A stretch of DNA of 64,000 nt. It comes from Chitinimonas koreensis. Its GTDB lineage: Bacteria; Pseudomonadota; Gammaproteobacteria; Burkholderiales; Chitinimonadaceae. Below are positions 5,823-55,132 of the stretch, piece after piece. Position numbers and translations under genes: made by a program. A model generated the notes under the pieces. The model was given only the letters and a program-made list of their open reading frames with translations. It was not told the DNA's origin and ran no database searches. Where the stretch lies: assembly GCF_014353015.1 (NCBI RefSeq), contig NZ_CP060704.1, forward strand, positions 1,282,210 to 1,346,209, in the 5' to 3' direction. Each line of letters begins with the position of its first letter. Position 1 is the first letter of the stretch.

Positions 5823-7406
5823 TCAGGCGGCTTTGCCGAAGCGCAGCACGATGGCGCCGAGCTCGTCCTTGGCCGGCGCCGGCTGGCTCAGCGGCTTGGC
5901 GCCGAGCTCGACCTCGAAGGTCTGGTAGGTATGGCCGCCGTGCTCGCGCGAGGCTTCGACGTGCACCAGGTACTTGCCTTGGCCGACCTTGCGGCCGCTC
6001 TCGTCGCTGCCGTCCCAGCCGATCGAATACTTGCCCGGCATGCGGGTGGGCTTGGTCACCGCGTCGAGCTGCTCGATCTTGCGGCCGTAGCGGCGCCACC
6101 AGACGTAGTTCGAATCGATCCACTTCTCCTTGTTGCCGAGGTGGGTCAGGTTGCGCACCAGCTTGCGCTCGGTGTCGGTGATCCAGATCGCCAGGTAGGG
6201 CGCCTTGTATTCGCCGGTGTCGATCTTGGGCACTTCGTAGTCGATGCTCAGCGCGAAGCTGGCCGGCCACGGCGCGGCGGCGGCCGCATCGGCCGTGCGC
6301 AGGAAACGCGGTTCGGCGGCGGCCTGTTCGCGCCGGGCGGCCAGCGCCGGCCAGCCGGCCGAATGCAGCTGGCGGCCGTCGGCGGTGAACAGCAGCGCCT
6401 CGACGCCGGGCAGGCTGTCGGCCAGCGCCAGGCTCTGCGCCGGCGGCATCACCGCGAAGGCGGTCGCCAGCGCGTCGGCGTCGGCGGCGCGGGCGGCCAC
6501 TACGGTGGCGCGCTCGACCAGCGTCACCGCCTGGCCGGTGCGCGGCGACACGATATGGGCGTGGCGCTCGCCGGCCACCGTCAGGTCGCGCTGGCCGCGG
6601 CCGCTGGTGGCGACCGCCTGGTCGCCGACCAGCAGCACCGCCGCCACCGGCGCGTTGTCGTGGGTCTGTTCCGGCTGGGCGACGCCGACGCGCCAGCCCT
6701 CGAGCTGCGGCGCGCGGCCCCAGCTGCGCAGGTCGCCGCCGAGGTCGACCAGCAGGCCGTCGAGGCCTTCGACCTGGTCGCGTGCCGCCTCGAGCGCGCG
6801 GTCGATGATGTAGCCCTTGGCCAGCGCGTCCATCGCCAGCTTCAGGCCGGCCGGCTTGGTCACCGTGCGGCCGGCCGGGTCGAGCGTCAGCGTGGCGGAT
6901 TCGGCCTGTGCCACGGCCTGCTGCAGCGCGGCCGCATCCAGCGTCCCGCCGGCCGCGGCGGCCTGCCACTGCGCCAGCGCGGCGCCGAGCCGGCCGCTGA
7001 AGGCGCCGCCGGTGGCCGTGCGCCATCGCTCGCAGGCGGCGATCACGGCGTAGAGGTCGTCCGATACCGCCATGCCGTCGCAGGCGTTCAGCGCGGCCAG
7101 TTCGCTGTCGGGCCGGTAATTGCTCAGCACGCGGTCGAGCCGGTCGATCTCGGCGCGCACCACCGCCAGCGCCTCGCGCGCGGTCGCCTCGTCGCGGCTC
7201 ACCGCCACCACGTCGAGCGAGGTGCCCAGCACGTGATCGGCATGGAAGCTCCAGCTCGGCGCGGCGGCTGGCCGGGTCGCCGGCGCGTCGGGCCGGGCGG
7301 CCGGGGCGGGCAGTTCGGCCTGCGCCGCGAGCGGGGCCAGCAGGCCGGCCGCGGCGAGCAGCCGGGTGCCGATGGAAAGGCGGTGAGGCCAGGAAAGTTG
7401 CCGCAT
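5823..7406 (-). CDS. apbE: FAD:protein FMN transferase (ApbE family) fused to a C-terminal DUF2271 domain. Signal peptide present
   Basis: N-terminal signal peptide. ApbE-like core (HVLGTSLDV.., GYIIDRA). C-terminal 140 aa is typical of DUF2271 (KAPYLAIWITD..KYLVHVEASREHGGH). Confidence 0.7.
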   Translation of the reverse strand: MRQLSWPHRLSIGTRLLAAAGLLAPLAAQAELPAPAARPDAPATRPAAAPSWSFHADHVLGTSLDVVAVSRDEATAREALAVVRAEIDRLDRVLSNYRPDSELAALNACDGMAVSDDLYAVIAACERWRTATGGAFSGRLGAALAQWQAAAAGGTLDAAALQQAVAQAESATLTLDPAGRTVTKPAGLKLAMDALAKGYIIDRALEAARDQVEGLDGLLVDLGGDLRSWGRAPQLEGWRVGVAQPEQTHDNAPVAAVLLVGDQAVATSGRGQRDLTVAGERHAHIVSPRTGQAVTLVERATVVAARAADADALATAFAVMPPAQSLALADSLPGVEALLFTADGRQLHSAGWPALAARREQAAAEPRFLRTADAAAAAPWPASFALSIDYEVPKIDTGEYKAPYLAIWITDTERKLVRNLTHLGNKEKWIDSNYVWWRRYGRKIEQLDAVTKPTRMPGKYSIGWDGSDESGRKVGQGKYLVHVEASREHGGHTYQTFEVELGAKPLSQPAPAKDELGAIVLRFGKAA

Positions 7407-7541
7407 TTTTTAGTTCTCCCGCGCGCGAGGGGCGCCGCTGATCGAGTGGTTCGGACAGACCGCGATTGTCTTGAAAATGAGAGTTATTTTCAATAAGATT
7501 CCCGGCTCATCCTCGAATGTAATCAGCACACGGAGACGGCA

Positions 7542-8462
7542 ATGAAGCGGACGGGCGGGCAACTCAGAACAACCGTGACCTTGCTGGGCCTGGCGGCCGC
7601 ATTGCTGGCCCCGGCGGCATCGGCCCACGGCGGCCCCTACCTGTTGCCGACCAGCTTCGCGGTGACGCGCGACTACGTGAGCGTGCAGGGCGCGATGGGC
7701 AACGAGGTGTTCTTCATCCCGACCGGCCCGATCCGCAACGCGGTCTACTACGCGGTGAGCCCGGCCGGCACGCGGCAGAAGCTCGACGGCGTGACCGCGC
7801 TGAAGGACTACAGCGTGATCGAGGCGCCGACCACCGAGAAGGGCACCTACCGGCTGACCACCGGCGACGAGATCGCGCGCACCAGCCGCGTGGCGCTGAT
7901 CGAAGGCACCTGGCGCATGGTGCGGCCGGCCAACCCGAACCAGGGCAACCAGGCCGGCGGCCAGCGTCCGCAAGGCGAAGGCCGCCCTGCCGCGCCCGCC
8001 AACCCGGCCCAGCCGCCGCGGCCGCCGCGTTTCATCGAGGAATCGGCCTTGCCGGCCGACGCCAAGGTGATCGAAGTGCGCAGCCTGGCGCGCGCCGAGA
8101 CCTACGTCACCCGCGGCAAGCCGACCGACGGCGCGCTCAAGCCGAGCGGCCAGGGCTTCGAGCTCAAGCCGATCACCCATCCGAACGACATCTACGTCGA
8201 CCAGGGCTTCGAATTCGAGCTGCTCGAAGACGGCAAGCCCTTGCCCGGCGTGGCGGTCGAGATCGCCCGCGCCGGCAACTTCTACGACGAGAAGAAGGAA
8301 TACGCCGAGCTCAAGACCGACGCCAACGGCCGCGGCAAGGTCAAGTTCGACCAGCCGGGCGCCTACATCCTGCTGACCAGCTACCCGGCCCCGCGCGAGC
8401 GCACCGAGCAGCCGGCGGCGCGCAGCTACAGCTACACGCTGACCTTCGAAGTGATGCGCTGA
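7542..8462 (+). CDS. DUF4198 domain periplasmic protein (metal-uptake associated)
   Basis: Signal peptide followed by HGGPYLLPTSF; family commonly found next to ApbE/DUF2271. Confidence 0.6.
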   Translation: MKRTGGQLRTTVTLLGLAAALLAPAASAHGGPYLLPTSFAVTRDYVSVQGAMGNEVFFIPTGPIRNAVYYAVSPAGTRQKLDGVTALKDYSVIEAPTTEKGTYRLTTGDEIARTSRVALIEGTWRMVRPANPNQGNQAGGQRPQGEGRPAAPANPAQPPRPPRFIEESALPADAKVIEVRSLARAETYVTRGKPTDGALKPSGQGFELKPITHPNDIYVDQGFEFELLEDGKPLPGVAVEIARAGNFYDEKKEYAELKTDANGRGKVKFDQPGAYILLTSYPAPRERTEQPAARSYSYTLTFEVMR

Positions 8463-8561
8463 ACGCGATCGTCGAACTGAAAAAAGCCCCGCCATGGCGG
8501 GGCTTTTCGTTTGGGCCGCGGTGCTGCGACGGCCTTGATCCGTCCGGCCGAACCGCTCCGC

Positions 8562-9209
8562 TCAAGCCGCGCTGGCGGCGGTGAAGCGACGGCGCGAATG
8601 CTTCGGCGCCTCGATCTCGTCGAGCACCGCCACCGCCAGGTCGGCGCTGCTGATGCCGGCCGGCTTGTCGCCGTCGAACAGCACCTCGTCGCCGCCGGTG
8701 CGGTAACGGCCGCTGCGCGCGCCCGGGGCCAGGAAGACCGGCGGCGAGACGAAGGTCCAGTCCAGCCCGGCCTCGCCCTGCAGCCGGCGCAGCGCGTCGC
8801 GCGCGCCCTCGGCGCCTTCCTTCCATTCGGCCGGGAAGTCCGGCGTATCGAGCAGCTGCACGCCCGGCGCCACGTAGAGGCTGCCGGCGCCGCCGATCTC
8901 GACCAGGCGCGCCACGCCGGCCGCCTTGCTGCCGGCGACGATGGCGTCGTGGCCCTGCACGAACAGCGCGCGGATGTCGGCCTTGCCCCAGCCGGGGTTG
9001 AAGGCGCTCAGCACGACGTCGGCGCCGGCCACCGCCGCGGCCACCTGGGCCGGGTCGTAGACGTCGGCGATCGCCGGCTGCAGCTTGGGATGGGCGTGCA
9101 GCTTCGAGGCGTCGCGGGTCAGCGCGATCACGTCGTGGCCGCGTTCGAGCGCTTCGGCCAGCAGGGCGCTGCCGACGAAGCCGGTGGCACCGATCAGGGC
9201 GATTTTCAT
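8562..9209 (-). CDS. NAD(P)H-binding atypical SDR (NmrA/BVR-like)
   Basis: MKIALIGATGFVGSALL Rossmann motif; 215 aa; ATG placed at 9207-9209. Confidence 0.75.
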   Translation of the reverse strand: MKIALIGATGFVGSALLAEALERGHDVIALTRDASKLHAHPKLQPAIADVYDPAQVAAAVAGADVVLSAFNPGWGKADIRALFVQGHDAIVAGSKAAGVARLVEIGGAGSLYVAPGVQLLDTPDFPAEWKEGAEGARDALRRLQGEAGLDWTFVSPPVFLAPGARSGRYRTGGDEVLFDGDKPAGISSADLAVAVLDEIEAPKHSRRRFTAASAA

Positions 9210-9241
9210 GGGTCGTTCTCCTTGGCTTGGATGAGTGGGTT

Positions 9242-9859
9242 TCAGGCGACGAGCGTCGCGATGTGGTCGATCAGCGTTTGCGGCTGGTACAGATACTGGC
9301 CCGGCACCACCCGCTCGCCGGCCAGCAGCGCCGGCACGCCTTGCAGCCGGTGGCGCTGCATCAGGTCGCGGGCGGCGTCGAGCCGGGCCTGCGCGCCGGC
9401 AGGCCAGCCCGCGGCCAGGCGCTGGCGGAAATCCGCCGCGTCGAGGCCGAACTCGGCTGCCGCCTCGGCCAGCGTGGCCGGCGTATGCGGCAGGCCGTCG
9501 AGGTAGCGCAGTGCCTGGATGCGGTGCAGCGCGGCCAGCGCGGCGTCGGGCCGGGCGGCCTCGATCAGCAGCCAGGCCTGGGTCGCCAGGGTGGAATCGA
9601 ACGGCGTCTCCAGGTCGGCCAGCACGCGTTCGCGGTAGGCGGCGCTGAACGGTTGGCCGGTCATCTCGGCGATGCGGCGGTCGTTGCGCCAGAAGTAGTC
9701 GGCGCGCTCGGCGCTCATCGCTTGCGGCCGGGCGAACAGGCCGGTCGGCAGCAGCGTCCAGTCGGGCGACAGCGCCGCGTCGAGCGCGGCCAGCGCCGGC
9801 TGGGCGCCGTAGCACCAGCCGCACAGCGGGTCGAACAGCAGGGTGAGCTTGGCTTGCAT
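9242..9859 (-). CDS. DsbA-family thioredoxin-like oxidoreductase (FrnE-like)
   Basis: LLFDPLCGWCYG CxxC motif. Confidence 0.75.
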   Translation of the reverse strand: MQAKLTLLFDPLCGWCYGAQPALAALDAALSPDWTLLPTGLFARPQAMSAERADYFWRNDRRIAEMTGQPFSAAYRERVLADLETPFDSTLATQAWLLIEAARPDAALAALHRIQALRYLDGLPHTPATLAEAAAEFGLDAADFRQRLAAGWPAGAQARLDAARDLMQRHRLQGVPALLAGERVVPGQYLYQPQTLIDHIATLVA

Positions 9860-9971
9860 GACGGGGATTCCGGCTTGGTTTGCGATGGCGCCATCATGCC
9901 CGCGTCGATTGATCGGATAAACATTGCAAAGCAGAATTCATCGTTCCTGAATTGAGAACGATGAGACGGCC

Positions 9972-10865
9972 ATGCAGATCGATCTGAACCGGCTGACGGT
10001 GTTTGCGGCGGTGGTGGAAGCCGGCGGCTTCACCGCCGCGGCCGAGCGGCTGGGCCTGGCCAAGTCGCAGGTGAGCCAGCAGGTGGCGCGGCTCGAGGCC
10101 GAGCTCGGCGTGGCGCTGTTCACCCGCAGCACCCGCCGGGTGGCGGTGACCGAGGCCGGCGAGACGCTGTACGCCGACAGCATGCCGCTGCTGGGCGGCC
10201 TGCAGGATGCGCTGGCGCGCGTCAGCGGCGGCCGGCTCGAAGGGCGGCTGCGCATCACTGCCGGCCAGGCCTATAGCGATGCGCTGCTCGGCGGCCTGCT
10301 GGCCCAGTTCGCCGCGCTGCATCCGGGGCTCGAGCTCGAGCTGATCGCCAGCGACAGCTCGCTCGACCTGCTGGCCGAGGGCATCGACCTGGCCATCCGC
10401 GGCGGCATGCTGCGCGATTCCAGCCTCAAGGCGGTGCGGCTGGACAGCTTCGCCCAGCTCGCGGTGGCCGCGCCGGCCTTGCTCGAGCGCATCGGCACGC
10501 CGGCCGAACCGGCCGCGCTCGACGGCCAGCCCTGGGTCGCGCTGACGGTGCTGGCCAGCCCGCTGAGCTGGACCTTCAGCCACCGCGACGGCCGCCGCGT
10601 CGCCATCCGCGGCCGCGCCGCCATGCGGGTGAACAGCGCCTCGGTGGCGCGCGAATGCGCCCGCGCCGCGATCGGCTGCGCCGTGCTGCCCGACTTCATG
10701 GCGCGCGACGACCTGGCCGGCGGCCGGCTGGTCCGCTTGCTGCCGGAGTGGGAACTGCCGCTGGCCGGCACCCACGCGGTCTGGCCGGCCGCGCGCTACC
10801 TGCCGACCAAGGTGCGCGTGCTGATCGAATTCCTGCGCCAGCGGCTGGCGCCCGCACCGGAGTAG
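9972..10865 (+). CDS. LysR-family transcriptional regulator
   Basis: N-terminal HTH (LTVFAAVVEAGGFTAAAERLGLAKSQVSQQVARLE) and LysR substrate-binding domain. Divergent from the two redox genes. Confidence 0.85.
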   Translation: MQIDLNRLTVFAAVVEAGGFTAAAERLGLAKSQVSQQVARLEAELGVALFTRSTRRVAVTEAGETLYADSMPLLGGLQDALARVSGGRLEGRLRITAGQAYSDALLGGLLAQFAALHPGLELELIASDSSLDLLAEGIDLAIRGGMLRDSSLKAVRLDSFAQLAVAAPALLERIGTPAEPAALDGQPWVALTVLASPLSWTFSHRDGRRVAIRGRAAMRVNSASVARECARAAIGCAVLPDFMARDDLAGGRLVRLLPEWELPLAGTHAVWPAARYLPTKVRVLIEFLRQRLAPAPE

Positions 10866-26830: not shown

Positions 26831-27062
26831 TGGCGCCGTCGGCAATACCGCGGTGACGCGTGGCACCGTCACCGGCCAAGCGTACGGCCGGACAAGGAAG
26901 AACCACTCAGCGAACCGGCGCCGCGCAACCGCGGATTGGCGCAGGCGGGCTGGGTGTTCTGACGGCCGGCCCGGACGAAGAAAAGCCCGCATCGCTGCAA
27001 CGATGCGGGCTTTGCGTATCTTGGGGCCTGGCGCCAAGGACGAGGCGGTCTGGTGCCCGGAG

Positions 27063-27147
27063 CCGGGGTCGAACCGGCACGGCTTGCGCCGAGGGATTTT
27101 AAGTCCCTTGTGTCTACCAGTTTCACCATCCGGGCGGAGGCGTAGGA
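27063..27147 (-). tRNA. tRNA-Leu (anticodon TAA)
   Basis: Reverse complement GCCCGGATGGTGAAACTGGTAGACAC..CTTAAAATC..GGTTCGACCCCGGCTCCGGGCACCA. Confidence 0.85.
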
Positions 27148-27323
27148 AGGCTGGCTGCCGCGCGGGTGCTGCCCTTGCCCGGTGGCTCGGCAGGCCTTGG
27201 GCCGCGCGCTCCGTTCCTACGCTGGAGAGCGGCGGATTGTAGCCCTACCGTGCTGTTTTCGCCACATGCGGCCGGTGCTGCGCCGGGTCCGGCGCGGCCT
27301 GCCGCGGTACGGCGCGGCGACGC

Positions 27324-27524
27324 TCAGGCGGCGAGCGGGTAGGCCATGGCGAACGGTTCGGGCTGCGGCAGCGCGTCGGCCAGGCCGAGCGCCAGCGCGC
27401 GTTCGGTCACGGCGATCTCGCGCCGGCCGAGCCGCGACGCGATGTCGCGCAGCGGTCGTTTTTCTCGCAGGCCCGTCAGCAGGATTTCGTCTTCGAAACT
27501 GCTCCAGCGCGTTGCCTTGCTCAT
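27324..27524 (-). CDS. Small hypothetical protein (66 aa)
   Basis: MSKATRWSSFEDEILLTGLREKRPLRDIASRL..; short ORF between tRNA-Leu and rtcA. Confidence 0.3.
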   Translation of the reverse strand: MSKATRWSSFEDEILLTGLREKRPLRDIASRLGRREIAVTERALALGLADALPQPEPFAMAYPLAA

Positions 27525-27807: not shown

Positions 27808-28830
27808 CTAGCCGATCTCGACCAGCCACCTGCCGTCGGCCTGCGCGCTGGCCGCGATCTCCACCGGCAGGAATTTCTCGATGACCGCGATATTGGTCAG
27901 CAGATGCGAAGACGCCGACACCGTGGTGAAGGCGCCGCCTCCCGCCAGGGCCAGCGGCAGCAGCAACTGGTCGGCCAGGTACTCGCCGACGGCCGCGCCG
28001 CTCTCGAGATAGAGCCGGGCCTGCCGCGCCGCATGGTCGGCCACGGCCTCGGCCGATACGCCGCGTTCGCCGAAGCTGGTGAACAGCTCGGTCACCTGCG
28101 CATGCGCCACTTCGATCAGCAGGGCGTTGCCCGGCCCCTCGCCGGCCGGCAGCTCGCGCACCCGGCCGCCCAGGCAGGCCAGTTGCGCGCCGGCGCGTTC
28201 CAGCTCGCGCCGGGCCACGCTGCCGGGGACGGCGGCGACCAGGGCCTCGGCCTTGAGCGCCTGCCGCTCGCCGCGGTCGATCAGCGTGATCGCCTGCAAG
28301 CCGCAGGGCTCGGTCGACGCGACGACCTCGCCGCCGCCGGCCGGGTAGAAGCCGTGCCGGCGCAGGGTGATATCGAGCTTGGCGCCCATGCGCCGGACCA
28401 GCGGCTGCCAGGCCCGGATCAGGAAATCGGCCGGCGGCGCCGCCTTGTTGTGGGTGCCGCCGCTCACCGTCACGGTGCTCGGCGCGTCGGCGAACCACAG
28501 CGCCGGCAGCACGGTCTGCAGCACCAGCGTGCAGCTGCCGGCCGTGCCGATGGCGAGACGGTAGTCGCCGCCGCGGATCGGTCCCGGCGCGAAGCGCAGG
28601 GTCTGCGAGCCGACCGCGGCGCCGTCCACCTGGGCTGACGAGACGGCCGCAGCGGCCTGTACCGCCGTCAGGTGCTGGCGCAGCAGGCCGGGCTTGCTGC
28701 GCTTGGCGCGGATATGTTCGATGCGGAACGGCCGGCCGGTGATCATGGCCAGCGTCAGCGCCGTGCGCAGCACCTGACCGCCGCCTTCGCCCTGTGAGCC
28801 GTCGAGTTCGATGATGTCTTGTTCTTTCAT
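27808..28830 (-). CDS. rtcA: RNA 3'-terminal phosphate cyclase
   Basis: EGGGQVLRTALTLAMITGRPFRIEHIRAKRSKPGL; full-length 340 aa. Confidence 0.9.
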   Translation of the reverse strand: MKEQDIIELDGSQGEGGGQVLRTALTLAMITGRPFRIEHIRAKRSKPGLLRQHLTAVQAAAAVSSAQVDGAAVGSQTLRFAPGPIRGGDYRLAIGTAGSCTLVLQTVLPALWFADAPSTVTVSGGTHNKAAPPADFLIRAWQPLVRRMGAKLDITLRRHGFYPAGGGEVVASTEPCGLQAITLIDRGERQALKAEALVAAVPGSVARRELERAGAQLACLGGRVRELPAGEGPGNALLIEVAHAQVTELFTSFGERGVSAEAVADHAARQARLYLESGAAVGEYLADQLLLPLALAGGGAFTTVSASSHLLTNIAVIEKFLPVEIAASAQADGRWLVEIG

Positions 28831-28903
28831 GGTTTTTCTTGTGGATTGAAGTCGTCCGACGCGCTCGCTCCGGACGGATTGTCAACAGCGTGAAGGTTCT
28901 TCT

Positions 28904-29698
28904 TTAGCAATCACGGATCGCGTTGAACAGCAGTGCATCGAGCGCCGATTCCTCGCCCCCGGGCCGCTTGAAATCCGCCGGCGGCTTGTCGGCAGCCAGT
29001 TCGTGTTCGATGAAGGCGTGGATGCGCGGGAAACGCGCACCGTATTCGGCTTCGCCGGCCGCCATCTTGATCGCCAGCAGCTGGTTGATTTCCTCGCGCA
29101 AGGCCGGATCGGTCACCATCGTGCCGGCCAGTTCGGCGAAGCGCATCGGCGGCATGCCGCGGCCGGTGTCGATCCACTGCGCGGCCAGCAATGGGCGCAG
29201 CACGTAGAGATACTTCTTGAGCCGTACCGTCTCGCCTTGCAGATAGCCGCGGAAATTCTTCTTCGCCATCGCCAGGTAATGCCAGCGCCCCTTGCGTTCG
29301 GAAAAGAATGCCGGTGCCAGGCTCTGCAACTGGCCGGCCACCTGTGCGTCTTCGCGGTAGACGACGGGCGAGTCGAGCCATTCGAACAGCGTCGGATTGG
29401 ACCGCCGTATCAGTTGCAGCGCCTTGCGCAGCTCCCAGCCGCACACGTCGAGCTCGTCGCTGATCGGCACTTCGATGACGTCGCGCTGCGGCTCGACGCG
29501 CAGGTACCAGTCGAGCTCGTGCACGTAGAGAAAGCGTACGTCGTAGTCGCTGTCGGGCGAGGCGAAGCCCCAGCCGCGGCTGCCGGATTCGCAGGCGAAC
29601 AGCACGCGCACGGCGTGGCGCTGCTCGATCGCCGCCAGTTCGGCCTCAATGCGCTGCCGTATTGCCTCATCGATCGGATGAGCGCTCAGAATGGTCAT
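28904..29698 (-). CDS. Pol-beta-superfamily nucleotidyltransferase domain protein, encoded between rtcB and rtcA
   Basis: Minimal NTase motif FACESGSRGWGFASPDSDYDVRFLY (GS...DxD); 264 aa. Confidence 0.6.
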   Translation of the reverse strand: MTILSAHPIDEAIRQRIEAELAAIEQRHAVRVLFACESGSRGWGFASPDSDYDVRFLYVHELDWYLRVEPQRDVIEVPISDELDVCGWELRKALQLIRRSNPTLFEWLDSPVVYREDAQVAGQLQSLAPAFFSERKGRWHYLAMAKKNFRGYLQGETVRLKKYLYVLRPLLAAQWIDTGRGMPPMRFAELAGTMVTDPALREEINQLLAIKMAAGEAEYGARFPRIHAFIEHELAADKPPADFKRPGGEESALDALLFNAIRDC

Positions 29699-29817
29699 GG
29701 AAATTCCCCGTCTTTCAAATCCCGGCGGTCCAGCTTGTATTCCGGCATCTTGCCGCCGGTCGTCACCCGCCCCGGCATTCTGCCAGCCGCAGCCCGGCCA
29801 TCGCCGGGCTGCCGGGC

Positions 29818-31032
29818 TCAACCCTTCACGCAGACCACCTGCCGCAAGGTATGCACGATCTCCACCAATTCCGACTGCGCCGCCATCACCTTGTCGATGT
29901 CCTTGTAGGCCATCGGGATCTCGTCGATCACGTCTTCGTCCTTGCGGCACTCGACGTGGGCCGTCGCCTTGATCTGGTCTGCCACGGTGAACAGCTTCCT
30001 GGCCTTGGTGCGGCTCATGGTGCGGCCCGCGCCATGGCTGCACGAGCAGAACGCTTCCTCGTTGCCGAGTCCGCGCACGATGAAGCTCCTGGCGCCCATC
30101 GAGCCGGGGATGATGCCGAGCTGGCCCTTCCGGGCCGACACGGCACCCTTGCGCGTCACCAGCACTTCGCGGCCGAAGTGGGTCTCCTTCTGCACGTAGT
30201 TGTGGTGGCAGTTCACCGCTTCCACGTCGGCGGCGAAGGGCTTGGCGATCACCTTGCGGGCGGCGGCGACGACGTTCTGCATCATCACCGCGCGGTTCCG
30301 CCGGGCGAAGTCCTGCGCCCAGCCGACTGCTTCGACATAGTCGTCGAAGTGCCGGCTGCCTTCCTCGAAGTAGGCCAGGTCGCGATGCGGCAGGTTGGCG
30401 ATGTGCTGGCGCATGTCCGCCTGCGCCAGTTCGATGAACAGGTTGCCGATGGCGTTGCCCACGCCGCGCGAACCCGAGTGCAGCATGAACCAGACGCGGT
30501 TTTCCTCGTCGAGGCAGACCTCGATGAAGTGGTTGCCGGTTCCCAGCGTTCCCAGGTGCTTGTGGTTGTTGGTGCGCTCCAGCTGCGGATGCTTTTCGGT
30601 GATCCGCTTGAAGCCCTGGTGCAGCTCGCCCCACATGGCGTCGACCGTCGCCGGCGGGACCTCCCAGGCGCCCTTGTCGCGCTTGCCCATCGTCTTGCCG
30701 TGCGGGACCGCGGCTTCGATGGCCGAACGCAGGCCGGCCAGGTCGTCGGGCAGGTCCGCGGCGGTCAGTGTGGTGCGGGCGGCCATCATGCCGCAGCCGA
30801 TATCCACCCCGACCGCGGCCGGGATGATGGCACCGAGCGTCGGGATCACGCTGCCGATGGTCGAACCCTTGCCCAGGTGCACGTCCGGCATCACCGCCAG
30901 GTGCTTGTAGATGAAGGGCATCCTGGCCGTGTTCATCAGCTGGGCGCGCGCTTCTTCTTCGACCGGCACGCCTTGGGTCCACATCTTGATCGGGGCGCCG
31001 TGGGGCACGGCGAGAGTGTCGTACTTGTTCAT
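29818..31032 (-). CDS. rtcB: RNA-splicing ligase RtcB
   Basis: MNKYD..; metal-binding His/Cys motifs (HSGSRGVGNAIG, NCHHNY, CSCSHGAGR); 404 aa. Confidence 0.95.
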   Translation of the reverse strand: MNKYDTLAVPHGAPIKMWTQGVPVEEEARAQLMNTARMPFIYKHLAVMPDVHLGKGSTIGSVIPTLGAIIPAAVGVDIGCGMMAARTTLTAADLPDDLAGLRSAIEAAVPHGKTMGKRDKGAWEVPPATVDAMWGELHQGFKRITEKHPQLERTNNHKHLGTLGTGNHFIEVCLDEENRVWFMLHSGSRGVGNAIGNLFIELAQADMRQHIANLPHRDLAYFEEGSRHFDDYVEAVGWAQDFARRNRAVMMQNVVAAARKVIAKPFAADVEAVNCHHNYVQKETHFGREVLVTRKGAVSARKGQLGIIPGSMGARSFIVRGLGNEEAFCSCSHGAGRTMSRTKARKLFTVADQIKATAHVECRKDEDVIDEIPMAYKDIDKVMAAQSELVEIVHTLRQVVCVKG

Positions 31033-31391
31033 TGCCTGTTTTCCTTGATCGTTCCCGCCATTTTCCGGCGCCGTGCCTGGCGGCAGGCGAGGCAGCGGAC
31101 GGCGGTCGTATACACATCGCCCTGGGCGGTTTCGTACCACCATTGCTGCTGTTCTGCTGTCCATACCTGGTGCGCGCCGCAATCGCGGCAGGTGAAGGCC
31201 AGGTCCTCGTAGTAACCGCGCCCGACGAATGCGGGCGCCCAGTCGCTGCAGTGGGGCGCCAGGAGTGCCAGATTGACCTGCCTGGCTCTCTTGGGTCGGA
31301 CCGCTGCGGGGGCGATCGGCGTCGCTGCTTCCCGCCGCGCCTGGCGTCGCGCCATGATGGCGGCCCGTTTCTGTTTTCCGCTTCGCATCAT
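31029..31391 (-). CDS. Small basic zinc-ribbon protein; stop overlaps the rtcB start
   Basis: CRDCGAHQ...CLACRQ (CxxC..CxxC), Lys/Arg-rich N-terminus. ATGA overlap with rtcB. Confidence 0.45.
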   Translation of the reverse strand: MMRSGKQKRAAIMARRQARREAATPIAPAAVRPKRARQVNLALLAPHCSDWAPAFVGRGYYEDLAFTCRDCGAHQVWTAEQQQWWYETAQGDVYTTAVRCLACRQARRRKMAGTIKENRQ

Positions 31392-31432
31392 GCATTTCCT
31401 TGCCGCCCGGCGGACTCGTCCGCCGGGCGTAT

Positions 31433-32569
31433 CTAGGCTTTCAGTTTCACCAGTCCGTTCAGCAACTGGTCGAGGCCGCCGAATACCGAGATCTTGTCGA
31501 TCCGCTCGGCCAGCCGTTCCAGCGTTTCCAGCTCCTTGAGCCGCAGGGCCGTCGGGTTGTCTTCCATCACCTTGGCGGTGTTCAGCAAGGAGCGGGTCGC
31601 CCCGGTTTCCTCGCGCCGGCGGATCACGTTGGCCTGGGCCGCCTTCTCGGCCTCGACCACCTGGGCCAGCAGCGCCTTCATCTCGCCGGGCAGCACGATG
31701 TCCTTCACGCCCAGGCTGGTCACCTTCACGCCGAAGCCCTGCAGCTTGGCGTCCAGGTGGCGGCTCACCACCTCGTCCACCAGCTGCTTGTTCTCCAGCA
31801 GCTCGTCGAGCGTACGGGTGCCGACGGCGGCGCGCAGGCCGAACTGCAGCTCGCGGTAGATGTGCTCGGCCGGCTTGGGCAGGCAGGAATACGCCAGCTC
31901 GACGTCGTCGAAGTACCAGGTGGCCGCCAGGTTGATGCGCAGGCTCACCTTGTCGCGGGTCAGGATTTCCTGGCCGCCGACTTCCAGCGCCTGCAGGCGG
32001 GTATCCACCAGCTCGACCGCGATGTCGCGGTTGAAGCGCCAGTAGCCGTAGCGCCCCGGCTGCAGCAGCCGGGCCAGCTTGCCGTCCACCCGCAGCAGGC
32101 CGAGATGGAACGCCGGCACCTGCACGTTCAGCACCGCGCCGAGGCCGGCGATGGAACGGCCGCGCAGGCCGGGCTGGGCCATGCGCGCCAGCAGCTCGGC
32201 CGGGACTTCGCAGCCCTCGTTCAGCGCCACGCGCTCCAGGCGTTGCGGCGCGGCGGATTTCCAGTACAGCTTGCGCGAGCCCGGCGGCAGGATTTCCGCC
32301 AGCGCCTCGTTTTCGAAGCGCAGCCCCGCTTCCTCGTCGCCGAGGTCGAACACCTGGAACTGGTCGGCGATCAGGGCCGGCTCGTTGCGCCGCAGGTAGT
32401 CGGCCAGCGGGTGTTCGAACAGCGCCGTTTCCAGCGGGAAGGCGCAGACGCTGTAGCGCTTGTTCGGATCGAACAGCCGGATTTCGCCCGGCGCCAGCAG
32501 GCGCTGGAAATCGCCGTCGCGCAGCAGGAGTGCGCGTTCGTTCTTACGGATGAGGAAGCGTTGCCACAT
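31433..32569 (-). CDS. SPFH/band-7 (stomatin/slipin-like) domain protein
   Basis: Band-7 core (VKDIVLPGEMKALLAQVVEAEKAAQANVIRRREETGA) with long N-terminal extension; 378 aa. Confidence 0.7.
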   Translation of the reverse strand: MWQRFLIRKNERALLLRDGDFQRLLAPGEIRLFDPNKRYSVCAFPLETALFEHPLADYLRRNEPALIADQFQVFDLGDEEAGLRFENEALAEILPPGSRKLYWKSAAPQRLERVALNEGCEVPAELLARMAQPGLRGRSIAGLGAVLNVQVPAFHLGLLRVDGKLARLLQPGRYGYWRFNRDIAVELVDTRLQALEVGGQEILTRDKVSLRINLAATWYFDDVELAYSCLPKPAEHIYRELQFGLRAAVGTRTLDELLENKQLVDEVVSRHLDAKLQGFGVKVTSLGVKDIVLPGEMKALLAQVVEAEKAAQANVIRRREETGATRSLLNTAKVMEDNPTALRLKELETLERLAERIDKISVFGGLDQLLNGLVKLKA

Positions 32570-32828
32570 ATTGTTTTTCTCCTGTTTTCGAATGAGCCGG
32601 CGGTCGCCGATCCGGCCGGGAGGCGGAATGGCCGGCAAGGGTGCGGACGGGCTTCGTGCTGGTCTGTCACGCGACACCTGGCCTGCCAGTGTCGATCGCT
32701 CAGTCACAGCGTCGTGCCTGTCTCTGCCTTGCGGCGATTCCCGTCCCGGGCCGGATCGGCGGCGACGTCGCCGTCGCACCGGGTACTGCCTGTTGCTGCT
32801 TCAAGTCACCTTGTCAGGTGGTTTCGAG

Positions 32829-32901
32829 CGGGAGTCGAACCCGCGACACGCTGATCGGAACCAGCTGCTCTACCCATTGAGCTATCGAATGGCGGCGATT
32901 C
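32829..32901 (-). ncRNA. tRNA-like RNA B (near-complete cloverleaf, anticodon loop TTCCGAT = Arg-CCG-like; acceptor stem imperfect)
   Basis: D-arm GCTCAATGGGTAGAGC, T-arm GCGGGTTCGACTCCCGC, 3' ..CCA. The anticodon stem is 1 nt short (possible indel) and two acceptor pairs are mismatched. Confidence 0.5.
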
Positions 32902-32948
32902 CGGGAATCGAACCCGGAGCGAGCTGCCCGCATCGCCGATGACCGTCT
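32900..32948 (-). ncRNA. tRNA-like minihelix A (acceptor stem + T-arm + CCA only)
   Basis: 5'-CGGCGAT-GCGGGCAGCTCGCT-CCGGGTTCGATTCCCGG-A-ATCGCCG-CCA. Perfect 7 bp acceptor-like stem; no D or anticodon arm. Confidence 0.4.
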
Positions 32949-33057
32949 CCTCGTCGCCGCGGCATGTACGTCCACGACTGGACTGGTGGCGTACACCGGA
33001 GCGGCATCGGAACCGCTGCCCGTCGGCGTGCGCCGATTCGGCGGTCGAGGCTTCCAT

Positions 33058-33073
33058 TGCGAGATGCGTGCCA
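33058..33073 (-). promoter_or_regulatory. Sigma-54 (-24/-12) promoter driving the tRNA-like/SPFH/rtcBA operon
   Basis: Minus strand reads TGGCACGcatcTCGCA against consensus TGGCACG-N4-TTGCA. About 100 nt upstream of minihelix A, divergent from rtcR. Confidence 0.65.
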
Positions 33074-33217
33074 GCTGGGTCCGGCGCATCGGGCAAGGTG
33101 GGTAAGTATCTGTATGGAAATGAATATCGCGTAGCGAGGCCGCCCAGTCCGTTCCGCGTGTCCCGGTTATTTGCAATACAATGAGATAGCTATTTATCCA
33201 AAAAGATAAGGTCGACC

Positions 33218-34800
33218 ATGAAGAAGAACGTCGTATTCGGATTCGTCGGCACCGTGCTGGACTACGTCGGCCGCGGCAGGGATCGCTGGAAGAAATGGCG
33301 GCCGACCATCGGCCTGTGCCAGCAGGAGGATTTGCTGGTCGACCGGCTGGAGCTGCTGCACGACAGCCGGAGCCGCAGCCTGTACGAGCGGCTCAAGGCC
33401 GATATCGCCGCGGTGTCGCCGGAGACCGAGGTGGTGAGCGTCGAAGTCGATCTGCGCGACCCGTGGGATTTCGAGGAGGTCTACGGCCTGCTGCACGACC
33501 TGGCGCGCGGCTACGACTTCGATACCGAGGCCGAGAACTACCTGGTCCACATCACCACCGGCACCCACGTGGCGCAGATCTGCTGGTTCCTGCTGGCCGA
33601 GGCGCGCTACCTGCCGGCCAGGCTGGTGCAGACCTCGCCGCCGCGCAACAAGGAGCAGGGCGACAGCGCCGGCAGCCATGCGGTGATCGATCTCGACCTG
33701 TCGCGCTATGACCGGATCGCGACCCGCTTCGCCCGCGAGCAGGCCGAGACGGTGTCCTTCCTGAAGTCCGGCATCGCCACCCGCAATGCCGGCTTCAACC
33801 GCATGATCGAGCAGATCGAGCGGGTGGCGGTGCGCTCGAAGGCGCCGATGCTGTTCTGCGGTCCGACCGGGGCAGGCAAGTCCTTCCTGGCGCGGCGGGT
33901 ATACGAGATGAAGAAGGTCCGGCACCGGTTGGCCGGCCGCTTCGTCGAGGTCAATTGCGCCACTTTGCGCGGGGACAGCGCCATGTCGGCCCTGTTCGGC
34001 CATGTGAAAGGCGCCTTCACCGGCGCCCAGTCCGAGCGTGCCGGCCTGCTGCGCAGCGCCGACGGCGGCCTGCTGTTCCTGGACGAGATCGGCGAACTGG
34101 GCCTGGACGAGCAGGCCATGCTGCTCAAGGCCATCGAGGAGAAGCGTTTCTTCCCCTCGGCGGCGACCGCGAGGTGGGCAGCGATTTCCAGCTGATCGCC
34201 GGCACGGTGCGCGATCTCAGGCAGTGGGTGGCCGAGGGCCGGTTCCGCGAGGATCTGTACGCCCGGATCAACCTGTGGACCTATGAATTGCCCGGCCTGG
34301 CCGATCGCGCCGAGGACATCGAGCCCAACCTGGAGTTCGAGCTGGCGCGCTTTGCCGGCGAGCACGGCGAGCAGGTGCGGTTCAATGCCGAGGCCAAGCG
34401 CGCCTACCTGAAGTTCGCCGGATCGGCCGAGGCCAGGTGGTCGGGCAATTTCCGCGAGCTGTCCGCCTCGGTCACCCGCATGGCCACCCTGGCCGAGGCG
34501 GGGCGCATCACCGAGACCTGCGTGCAGGAGGAGATCGGACGCCTGCGCCACGCCTGGGGCGGCGCCGAGCGGAGCGCGCTGGAGAGCGTGCTGGGCGAAC
34601 GGCTGCAGGCGCTCGACCTGTTCGACCGGCTGCAGCTGGAAAGCGTGGTCGACGTCTGCCGCCGGTCGAGCTCGCTGTCGGATGCCGGCCGGCGCCTGTT
34701 CGGCATATCGCGGCAGGAGAAGGCCAAGGCCAACGATGCGGACCGGTTGCGCAAATACCTGGCCCGCTTCGATCTGAGCTGGGCGGCCGTGCGCGGGTAG
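33218..34800 (+). CDS. rtcR: Sigma-54-dependent transcriptional regulator RtcR (CARF + AAA+ + HTH), with a frameshift near 34160
   Basis: N-terminal CARF-like domain, Walker A GPTGAGKS, GAFTGA motif. C-terminal HTH in the 33955..34800 frame. Confidence 0.85.
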
Positions 34801-54707: not shown

Positions 54708-55132
54708 CTGTGTTCTCCATGCGTGAAGACGCAAAAAAGGCGTCCGCGCTGGGCGGCGGGTCTGCGATGAGAGACCGCCGCGTAGCGAGGACGCCTTTGT
54801 CCGGATTCGAGGGTTCGACGTTGAACCGTTGTCTTGCCAGGCCAGCGGTCCGCCGTTGAACCGTTGGGTGCTGCTTCATTCTGGCGGAACGCTAACAGCA
54901 ACTGCCGTGCCAGCGTCGTGGCCTAGCTGGATCAAGGGCTTGCAGGCATGATGGCCGCGGCGCGGCCCGGTCCGTGCGCGCGGTTTGTGCATTGCAGCAG
55001 CGGCATGCACCGCAGCTGTGCGGAGCGGCGGCGGCCGTCGCGGCCGGCCGGCTTGTATGACACCGGGCTTCCCGCTACCCTCGCGCCCTTTCTGAAAACG
55101 CACCGGCCCGTCGCCCGGGGAGGAAAACAGCC

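Follow-up and report, generated by a model that had tools for sequence, protein, structure and literature searches.

The locus described here raises the question of what lies between the regulator gene rtcR and the RNA-repair operon that it faces, and whether the two together make up a new kind of system. It is located in a 64,000-nucleotide (nt) stretch of the Chitinimonas koreensis genome (assembly GCF_014353015.1, contig NZ_CP060704.1, positions 1,282,210 to 1,346,209), referred to throughout as the window, where rtcR is divergent from genes for an SPFH/Band-7 protein, a zf_Tbcl zinc-finger protein, the RNA ligase RtcB, the nucleotidyltransferase RlaP and the RNA cyclase RtcA. A first reading of the sequence (the original prediction) had regarded it as an uncharacterised variant of the RNA-damage repair system. 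This view did not hold, since the layout was predicted in 2016, is widespread, and is present in Pseudomonas aeruginosa as PA4581-PA4585; the locus is the C. koreensis copy of the known Band-7, b7a-tRNA and RlaP operon under RtcR/sigma-54 control, and no new kind of system. The abstract of Burroughs & Aravind 2016 reportedly describes SPFH/Band-7 modules with "a novel tRNA-like molecule" and "a novel nucleotidyltransferase". In the relevant passages of later papers, the Band-7 protein, its cognate b7a-tRNA and RlaP beside RtcB are credited to that work (10.1101/312249; PMC12776372), the b7a-tRNA is put forward as a hypothetical cofactor of Band-7 (10.1101/312249), and the name RlaP is traced to the same authors (PMC12776372). 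A 2025 preprint reports that RlaP adds one to two nucleoside monophosphates to RNA 3'-OH ends and draws Pseudomonas rtcR-rtcB-rlaP-rtcA loci (PMC12776372). What is possibly new, as far as the 2016 prediction can be compared by way of the papers citing it, is that the tRNA mimics of the locus lie inside a larger conserved structured RNA.

This RNA occupies the region from the predicted transcription start to the SPFH start codon. The original prediction had assigned about 220 nt to a non-coding start of the transcript, whereas the conserved structure was found to span about 477 nt, comprising a three-helix junction (D1), the tRNA-like units A and B, a hairpin (H3) and a long irregular rod (D3), all of which are listed with their coordinates in Table 1. 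For the comparative analysis 80 beta- and gamma-proteobacterial loci were kept, and the alignments were produced with E-INS-i and folded with RNAalifold. The helices of D1 in the window are P1 (33028-33026 with 32960-32958), the P2 hairpin (33020-33013 with 33004-32998) and P3 (32997-32989 with 32971-32961). The results showed that in alignment A3, which holds 38 non-redundant loci, 93.1% of the D1 cells were paired in comparison to 81.1% after shuffling, and that the covariation was 0.391 in comparison to 0.168 for shuffled alignments (reached in 0 of 500 shuffles), with slid controls at 0.117 or less. For D3, the RNAalifold pairing over 38 loci was 82.2% in comparison to 67.7% after shuffling, and the covariation was 0.437 in comparison to 0.206 (0 of 300 shuffles), with slid controls at 0.12 or less; its base stands about 27 nt before the SPFH start codon, beside the Shine-Dalgarno sequence. 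Both domains are conserved over beta- and gamma-proteobacteria. A search of the leader against Rfam 15 matched no family except "tRNA", and D1 and D3 were both left unmatched. The P2 loop of D1 was also considered as a strict T-loop, which was ruled out as the loop sequence varies.

To locate D1 elsewhere, a covariance model (R1) was used, which gave exactly one match per locus in 79 of the 80 SPFH loci, including 42 loci outside the set from which the model was built, and scored 63.6 bits in the window. The matches lie on the SPFH strand about 400 to 540 nt upstream of the ATG; one further match is in a close relative, and there was none anywhere else in 1.1 Mb. D1 is thereby found in 79 of 80 loci, against 70 of 81 intergenic regions for paired T-loops, and it is present in four loci without a full-length rtcB, as checked by tblastn and by inspection of the downstream open reading frames (ORFs). 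Since D1 occurs once upstream of SPFH in nearly all loci, these four included, the leader RNA appears to travel with SPFH. A metagenome scan with a D1 sequence pattern asked whether the RNA also occurs without SPFH, and it gave chance matches: of the 80 returned loci a single one scored with the D1 model, at 33.9 bits, and this one lay inside a coding sequence with no SPFH gene.

Between D1 and D3 lie the two tRNA-like elements which the original prediction had recognised, in the place held by the Y RNAs in Salmonella rsr-yrlBA-rtcBA, and both the elements and their position were borne out, unit B by Rfam and ARAGORN and unit A by its T-arm, its acceptor-like helix and comparison among loci. 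For unit B, ARAGORN called a tRNA at 32820-32891 on the minus strand with a malformed anticodon loop and a 2-nt "anticodon"; in the window this unit has a 6-nt anticodon loop and a 5-base-pair (bp) acceptor, corresponding to positions 3-68 of the Rfam model. All five pairs of the anticodon stem show covariation in alignment A2; the loop, which ranges from 4 to 20 nt, is often a UUCG or GNRA tetraloop. Across loci the acceptor has 5 to 6 pairs, a small hairpin that covaries comes next, and the 3' CCA is missing in most of them. A hairpin at the H3 position is found in most of 70 loci with differing sequences (such as CUGUCC..GGACAG and CUGCCC..GGCAG). Unit B is probably the published "b7a-tRNA".

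In the window, unit A lacks an anticodon arm; its acceptor-like helix is 7 bp long (CGGCGAU/AUCGCCG), its D-like hairpin is short, and its T-arm, which is canonical, reads CCGGG-UUCGAUU-CCCGG. The same plan is seen throughout the beta-proteobacterial loci, with an acceptor-like helix of 5 to 7 bp, a hairpin of 2 to 4 bp whose loop contains GG, a canonical T-arm and no anticodon arm, and the sequence of the helix changes in almost every lineage of this group. A helix of at least 6 bp at the expected place was observed in 24 of the 26 beta-type loci, in comparison to 14% at decoy positions. In Pseudomonas, unit A is a second full cloverleaf. Two GGUUCGANUCC T-loops 68 to 83 nt apart were found in 70 of the 81 intergenic regions. 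As an additional observation, the window carries CCA directly 3' of unit A (32890-32892), and the 3-5 nt linker between the units reads (N)CCA in about 12 of the 26 beta-type loci; if RNase P cut unit B at its 5' end, unit A would gain a tRNA-like 3' CCA, which could be functional or a relic.

The identities assigned by ARAGORN are near-random among related loci (Asn, Ile, Pro, Arg, Met, Leu, Val, "stop" or no anticodon), which answers in the negative the possibility left open by the original prediction that these are ordinary chromosomal tRNAs. As the anticodon is not conserved and tetraloops are frequent, units A and B are, on sequence grounds, tRNA mimics and neither decoding tRNAs nor YrlA. 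Membership of a Y RNA family was rejected directly, as the YrlA model gave 30.1 bits against a threshold of 69 and the Deinococcus Y RNA model gave 20.3 against 80.

The SPFH protein, the apparent companion of this RNA, had been described as a membrane scaffold. No transmembrane segment was predicted for it, its maximum Kyte-Doolittle 19-residue mean being 1.45 and below the usual threshold for such segments. Its AlphaFold model (predicted local distance difference test, pLDDT, 79.9) consists of a beta-rich N-terminal domain followed by the SPFH domain and, at the C-terminus, a long helix, and residues 1-135 are rich in beta-strands (pLDDT about 90) at the place where stomatin has its membrane hairpin. 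The absence of a predicted segment together with the beta-rich N-terminal domain leaves the "membrane scaffold" unsupported. The modelled protein is probably soluble, and a soluble oligomeric scaffold is more likely than a membrane scaffold: an SPFH domain followed by a long helix, as in scaffolds which oligomerise into rings or cages, is present, and the closest folds are those of stomatin, HflK and prohibitin, which form oligomeric cages. The major vault protein (MVP) was also matched, and an MVP-like architecture was considered and set aside as weakly supported, stomatin and HflK giving better matches. Close relatives of the SPFH protein number in the thousands, and it shares 68% identity with that of P. 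aeruginosa. Some close homologues (P0012, P0013, P0017, P0021, P0028, P0112 and P0114, Xenorhabdus included) are 511 to 591 amino acids long in comparison to about 378; the added length may be a further N-terminal domain or the product of start codons mis-called through the leader.

The near-consensus sigma-54 promoter which had been proposed between rtcR and the operon was found, with its position and sequence conserved. The consensus has two matches in the window in comparison to 0.18 expected, of which TGGCACGCATCTCGCA is one, and TGGCAC-N5-TCGCW stands at the same offset in about 60 of the 81 rtcR-SPFH intergenic regions, which are 605 to 775 nt long in the 67 loci where rtcR is divergent. 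The other exact match, TGGCACGGCAGTTGCT, is at 54897-54912 on the minus strand. The perfect inverted repeat TTATC-N6-GATAA (TTATCCAAAAAGATAA) occurs as a single copy in the window in comparison to 0.07 expected, and lies no more than 60 nt from the rtcR start in 34 of the 67 loci by the strict pattern and in 50 of the 67 by a relaxed one. From this distribution it is a candidate RtcR operator, or upstream activating sequence, and since it overlaps the ribosome-binding region of rtcR, autoregulation of rtcR could take place through it. An IHF-like site (WATCAANNNNTTR) lies 5' of the sigma-54 element in 22 of 63 loci, the copy in the window being poor. The combination of inverted repeat, IHF-like site and sigma-54 element fits a classical enhancer-dependent promoter. 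The leader strand was also scanned for an intrinsic terminator and for a sigma-70 consensus, and neither was found.

Taken together, these features suggest a course of events in four steps, which as a whole we regard with moderate confidence. RtcR, which is activated by damaged tRNA (PMC7790460), would probably bind TTATC-N6-GATAA and, on receiving a signal which by analogy with Salmonella may be tRNA fragments with 2',3'-cyclic phosphate ends, would open the sigma-54 promoter. A single transcript starting near 33046 would then carry the leader RNA (D1, unit A, unit B, the hairpin and D3) followed by the coding regions for SPFH, zf_Tbcl, RtcB, RlaP and RtcA. Following the activities described in the literature, RtcA would cyclise 3'-phosphate ends, RtcB would join 3'-phosphate or 2',3'-cyclic phosphate ends to 5'-OH ends, and RlaP would restore one to two nucleotides on trimmed 3'-OH ends. 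In the last step the leader RNA, either whole or cut at the tRNA-like units by tRNA-processing enzymes, would be bound by the SPFH protein, in the form of a soluble, stomatin-like ring or cage, and perhaps also by zf_Tbcl, and the resulting ribonucleoprotein (RNP) would recruit or organise damaged tRNA or rRNA and the repair enzymes as a counterpart of Ro60 with YrlA. The linkage of RNA and SPFH is one of genomic co-occurrence, from which we infer binding, processing and a scaffold role; on this basis a damage-induced RNP scaffold for repair, made of leader RNA and SPFH oligomer, is the most likely function. The fullest form of the proposal is that the "band-7-associated tRNA" is the middle of an RNA of about 450 nt (D1, one or two tRNA modules and a D3 of about 190 nt) which forms with a soluble cage-type SPFH protein a damage-induced, vault- or Ro-like RNP organising RtcB, RlaP and RtcA; this is offered as a tentative idea, conceivable and on the doubtful side.

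Other explanations of the leader have to be weighed against such a scaffold. If the units were ordinary decoding tRNA genes merely placed between rtcR and the operon, as the P. aeruginosa annotation "tRNA-Arg4" has it, this would agree with the Rfam tRNA scores of unit B and Pseudomonas unit A (43-60 bits, above the gathering threshold) and with some loci whose 7-nt loops read Arg, Met, Ile and the like. The near-random "anticodons" among related loci, the many loops of 4 to 6 nt or with insertions to about 20 nt, the acceptors of 5 to 6 pairs, the CCA missing after unit B in most loci and in P. aeruginosa tRNA-Arg4 too (PMC13637947), the beta-type unit A lacking an anticodon arm, and the fixed position in 70 of 81 loci make this explanation extremely improbable. 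Better odds, although still low, are given to tRNA-like RNAs acting as decoys or competitive inhibitors of tRNA-targeting toxins or nucleases during the inducing stress, as the canonical T-arms, D-arm and acceptor-like helices would display the elbow and acceptor shapes of a tRNA. The main known tRNA toxins, however, are anticodon nucleases, for which non-conserved loops, often tetraloops, and a unit A devoid of the arm would be no decoy. The same idea has been raised for YrlA (PMC7790460); here it would leave the strict SPFH linkage, D1 and D3 without explanation.

A more serious competitor, which we nonetheless think rather unlikely, is that the leader acts mainly in cis as a 5' untranslated region, which controls the stability or translation of the SPFH-rtcB mRNA either by its folding or by being cut or processed at the tRNA-like units, through RNase P or tRNA-damaging ribotoxins, without any trans-acting RNP subunit. 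It is favoured by the end of the D3 rod about 27 nt before the SPFH ATG and beside the Shine-Dalgarno sequence, by the constant attachment of the leader upstream of SPFH, by the persistence of D1 and D3 where the tRNA-like units are lost, and by the lack of a terminator between RNA and ORFs. Against it, a covarying structure of about 450 nt, with several domains and two elbow-forming mimics, goes far beyond the needs of known translational leaders. The predicted base helix of D3, whose 3' strand extends as far as 32596, also stops about 13 nt short of the AGGAG at about 32583-32579, so that it leaves the Shine-Dalgarno sequence unsequestered. In addition, the P. aeruginosa RNA was measured by quantitative reverse-transcription PCR (qRT-PCR) at about half the level of canonical tRNA, independently of Rtc induction (PMC13637947), and this suggests a stable RNA species.

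Some observations also weigh against the RNP scaffold itself. In P. aeruginosa, where the PA4582-PA4585 proteins are co-induced under RNA stress, "tRNA-Arg4" (PA4581.1 of the PA4581-PA4585 cluster) was detectable by qRT-PCR at a level unchanged under strong induction of the Rtc proteins (PMC13637947), a result at odds with simple co-induction, unless a high stability or an additional constitutive synthesis of the RNA is assumed. When the SPFH gene of P. aeruginosa (PaFlo8) was deleted, no phenotype was seen in the assays used (PMC13086221). Our loci were gathered by way of SPFH, and the counts of RNA-SPFH co-occurrence hold for a sample of that kind. Furthermore, five loci of the P. putida group keep D1, D3, SPFH and rtcB and have lost recognisable tRNA-like units; because the units are lost there while the rest stays, tRNA mimicry appears dispensable in some lineages. 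These loci, L017 (6168-6262), L019, L023, L064 and L072, come from P. donghuensis, P. aegrilactucae, P. rubra and P. entomophila; they keep rtcR and RlaP as well, have no rtcA, and show a short degenerate hairpin in place of the units. They thus form a natural "deletion series" for the function of the mimics.

Table 1. Coordinates of the elements of the rtc locus (positions within the window) with the support for each
Feature	Position	Strand	Support or remark
rtcA, RNA 3'-terminal phosphate cyclase, 340 amino acids	27808-28830	-	PF01137 RTC 9e-81; NCBIfam equivalog NF003246 6e-141
rlaP, RNA-ligase-associated Pol-beta nucleotidyltransferase, 264 amino acids	28904-29698	-	full-length PF10127 RlaP 1.6e-97; phrog_14344 1e-94
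rtcB, 3'-phosphate/2',3'-cyclic-phosphate RNA ligase, 404 amino acids	29818-31032	-	PF01139 9.4e-130
zf_Tbcl (treble clef) basic zinc-finger protein, 120 amino acids	31029-31391	-	PF13451 4.6e-14
SPFH/Band-7 ("slipin") gene, 378 amino acids	31433-32569	-	Band_7 5.5e-25
Non-coding structured leader, ~477 nt	32570-33046	-	predicted start to SPFH ATG; folding z-score -3.5
D3, long irregular rod	~32596-32780	-	central helix 32761-32745/32605-32620; 45 consensus pairs
Hairpin H3, CACC-UGACA-GGUG	32807-32819	-	directly after unit B
Unit B, full cloverleaf with canonical D- and T-arms and non-decoding anticodon loop	32823-32889	-	Rfam tRNA 43.3 bits
Unit A, mini-tRNA	32893-32938	-	T-arm and acceptor-like helix in the window; comparative support
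D1, three-helix junction	32956-33043	-	near-invariant G-Y-AUGCCGC motif closing the junction; covariation
Sigma-54 promoter TGGCACGCATCTCGCA, -24 GG / -12 GC	33058-33073	-	transcription start predicted at ~33046
Inverted repeat TTATC-N6-GATAA (TTATCCAAAAAGATAA), perfect	33194-33209		9 nt upstream of the rtcR ATG
rtcR: CARF, sigma-54 AAA+ (GAFTGA), lid and C-terminal helix-turn-helix	33218-34800	+	Pfam RtcR 1.8e-87; Sigma54_activat 2.9e-34

The gene series itself stood as it had been read, with rtcR, SPFH, the zinc protein, rtcB, the Pol-beta nucleotidyltransferase and rtcA all identified by Pfam or NCBIfam profiles at the coordinates first given for them. The minimal Pol-beta nucleotidyltransferase belongs to the RlaP family (PF10127), and the basic zinc-binding ORF overlapping the rtcB start, for which no family had been named, proved to be a zf_Tbcl protein (PF13451) with 22 lysine plus arginine residues in 120 amino acids and five cysteines. 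The operon is tightly packed, the successive gaps from SPFH to rtcA being 41 nt, a 4-nt overlap (the ATGA shared by the zf_Tbcl ORF and the rtcB start), 119 nt and 73 nt. Alignment of RtcB with solved RtcB structures matched its motifs DVH, DIGCG, GNHF, HSGSRG, HHN and CSHGAGR, covering the metal-binding residues and the guanylyl-His. The Ro60/TROVE gene which had been noted as missing is indeed not seen among the Pfam matches within the 15-kb neighbourhood, which comprises 17 genes. Sequence searches of the PDB with RlaP and with zf_Tbcl gave no match, and the PADLOC defence models had no match to the five operon proteins at E <= 0.001. About 290 nt 3' of rtcA, on the same strand, the public record has a 66-amino-acid ORF (MSKATRWSSFEDEILL..., 27321-27521, minus strand), and next after it stands an ordinary tRNA-Leu(UAA) (27051-27135, minus strand).

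As to how far this arrangement extends, a scan of GTDB species found it in at least 565 beta- and gamma-proteobacterial species genomes, 565 of the first 600 candidates being confirmed. Gene counts were based on the 61 sampled loci with complete flanks, of which 59 have rtcB after SPFH and 55 a divergent rtcR upstream; RlaP, a frequent component of such systems but not an obligatory one, was found in 42 of them, rtcA in 35 and zf_Tbcl in 14. The co-occurrence of the accessory genes with rtcB, as originally proposed, thus passes the neighbourhood test. The full order of the window (R-S-Z-B-P-A) is found in 11 of the 61. Where it is present, zf_Tbcl lies between SPFH and rtcB; its gene neighbourhoods suggest a sporadic recruit to the locus, and the candidate role of a general Rtc component was ruled out, distant members of the family (in Beggiatoa, Tepidisphaeraceae and Clostridia) standing alone outside rtc operons. 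The four loci with the D1 leader and SPFH and without full-length rtcB (L001 of Chitinimonas lacunae, 6068-10661; L059; L071; L077) have no rtcR either, and L001 keeps zf_Tbcl; in L001 the leader and SPFH are followed by a 738-amino-acid ORF without a Pfam match. The gene contents of such loci suggest that the RNA-SPFH pair may work with other partners too.

The rtcR gene requires a comment on sequence quality. The CARF and AAA+ (GAFTGA) domains which had been read in it were recovered by profile, whereas the single ORF was not, since a 1-nt deletion in a C-run at 34153 splits the gene in the window, and the NCBIfam profile RNA_repair_RtcR covers it in two frames (profile positions 1-310 and 306-528). 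In the NCBI record of the same genome (GCA_000428465.1) and in its Logan assembly, rtcR is intact with 527 amino acids. Comparison of the window with GCA_000428465.1 over 15 kb revealed six 1-nt deletions (36264, 34153, 32745, 27023, 26386 and 26075), all in G/C homopolymers, and no substitutions. As the six deletions are confined to homopolymers and there are no mismatches, the frameshift is a sequence-quality artefact due to under-calling of homopolymers, and an rtcR pseudogene was ruled out. False frameshifts from the same systematic under-calling are to be expected elsewhere in the window.

The Rtc system influences survival after ribosome-targeting antibiotics and ribotoxins. In general, the analysis suggested that the RNA partner of SPFH is probably not a lone tRNA-like gene but an RNA of about 450 nt with several domains, and the larger leader, the probably soluble SPFH protein and the candidate RtcR operator make the roles of the accessory parts of Rtc more concretely testable, including in the pathogen P. 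aeruginosa. For annotation, genes of the "tRNA-Arg4" type beside rtcR should be treated with caution, as they are mimics and not decoding tRNAs.

Among known systems the nearest is PA4581-PA4585 of P. aeruginosa, which shares with the window, in identical order, rtcR (PA4581), the divergent tRNA-like RNA, SPFH, rtcB, rlaP and rtcA, as well as the sigma-54 promoter and the leader modules; it differs in that the window has the extra zf_Tbcl gene and a unit A truncated to a mini-tRNA, in comparison to the full cloverleaf of Pseudomonas. The E. coli rtcR-rtcBA locus has the same RtcR CARF-AAA+ activator, sigma-54 promoter, RtcB and RtcA, and is without a structured RNA leader, SPFH, RlaP and zinc finger (PMC12776372, PMC7790460). 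With Salmonella enterica rsr-yrlBA-rtcBA the window has in common the RtcR/sigma-54 control and a non-coding RNA with a tRNA-like domain encoded together with rtcBA, and in Salmonella a ring- or cage-forming RNA-binding scaffold protein stands alongside (PMC7790460, PMC4201824), whose counterpart in the window would be the SPFH protein. The two differ in that the window has SPFH and no TROVE/Ro60, and in that its tRNA-like units are in tandem with normal tRNA connectivity, whereas the YrlA module is permuted. The eukaryotic vault, lastly, is composed of MVP with an SPFH-like shoulder, vault RNA and the TROVE-domain protein TEP1, and resembles the proposed particle by analogy, as a soluble cage with an SPFH-type fold, a long helix and small structured RNAs.

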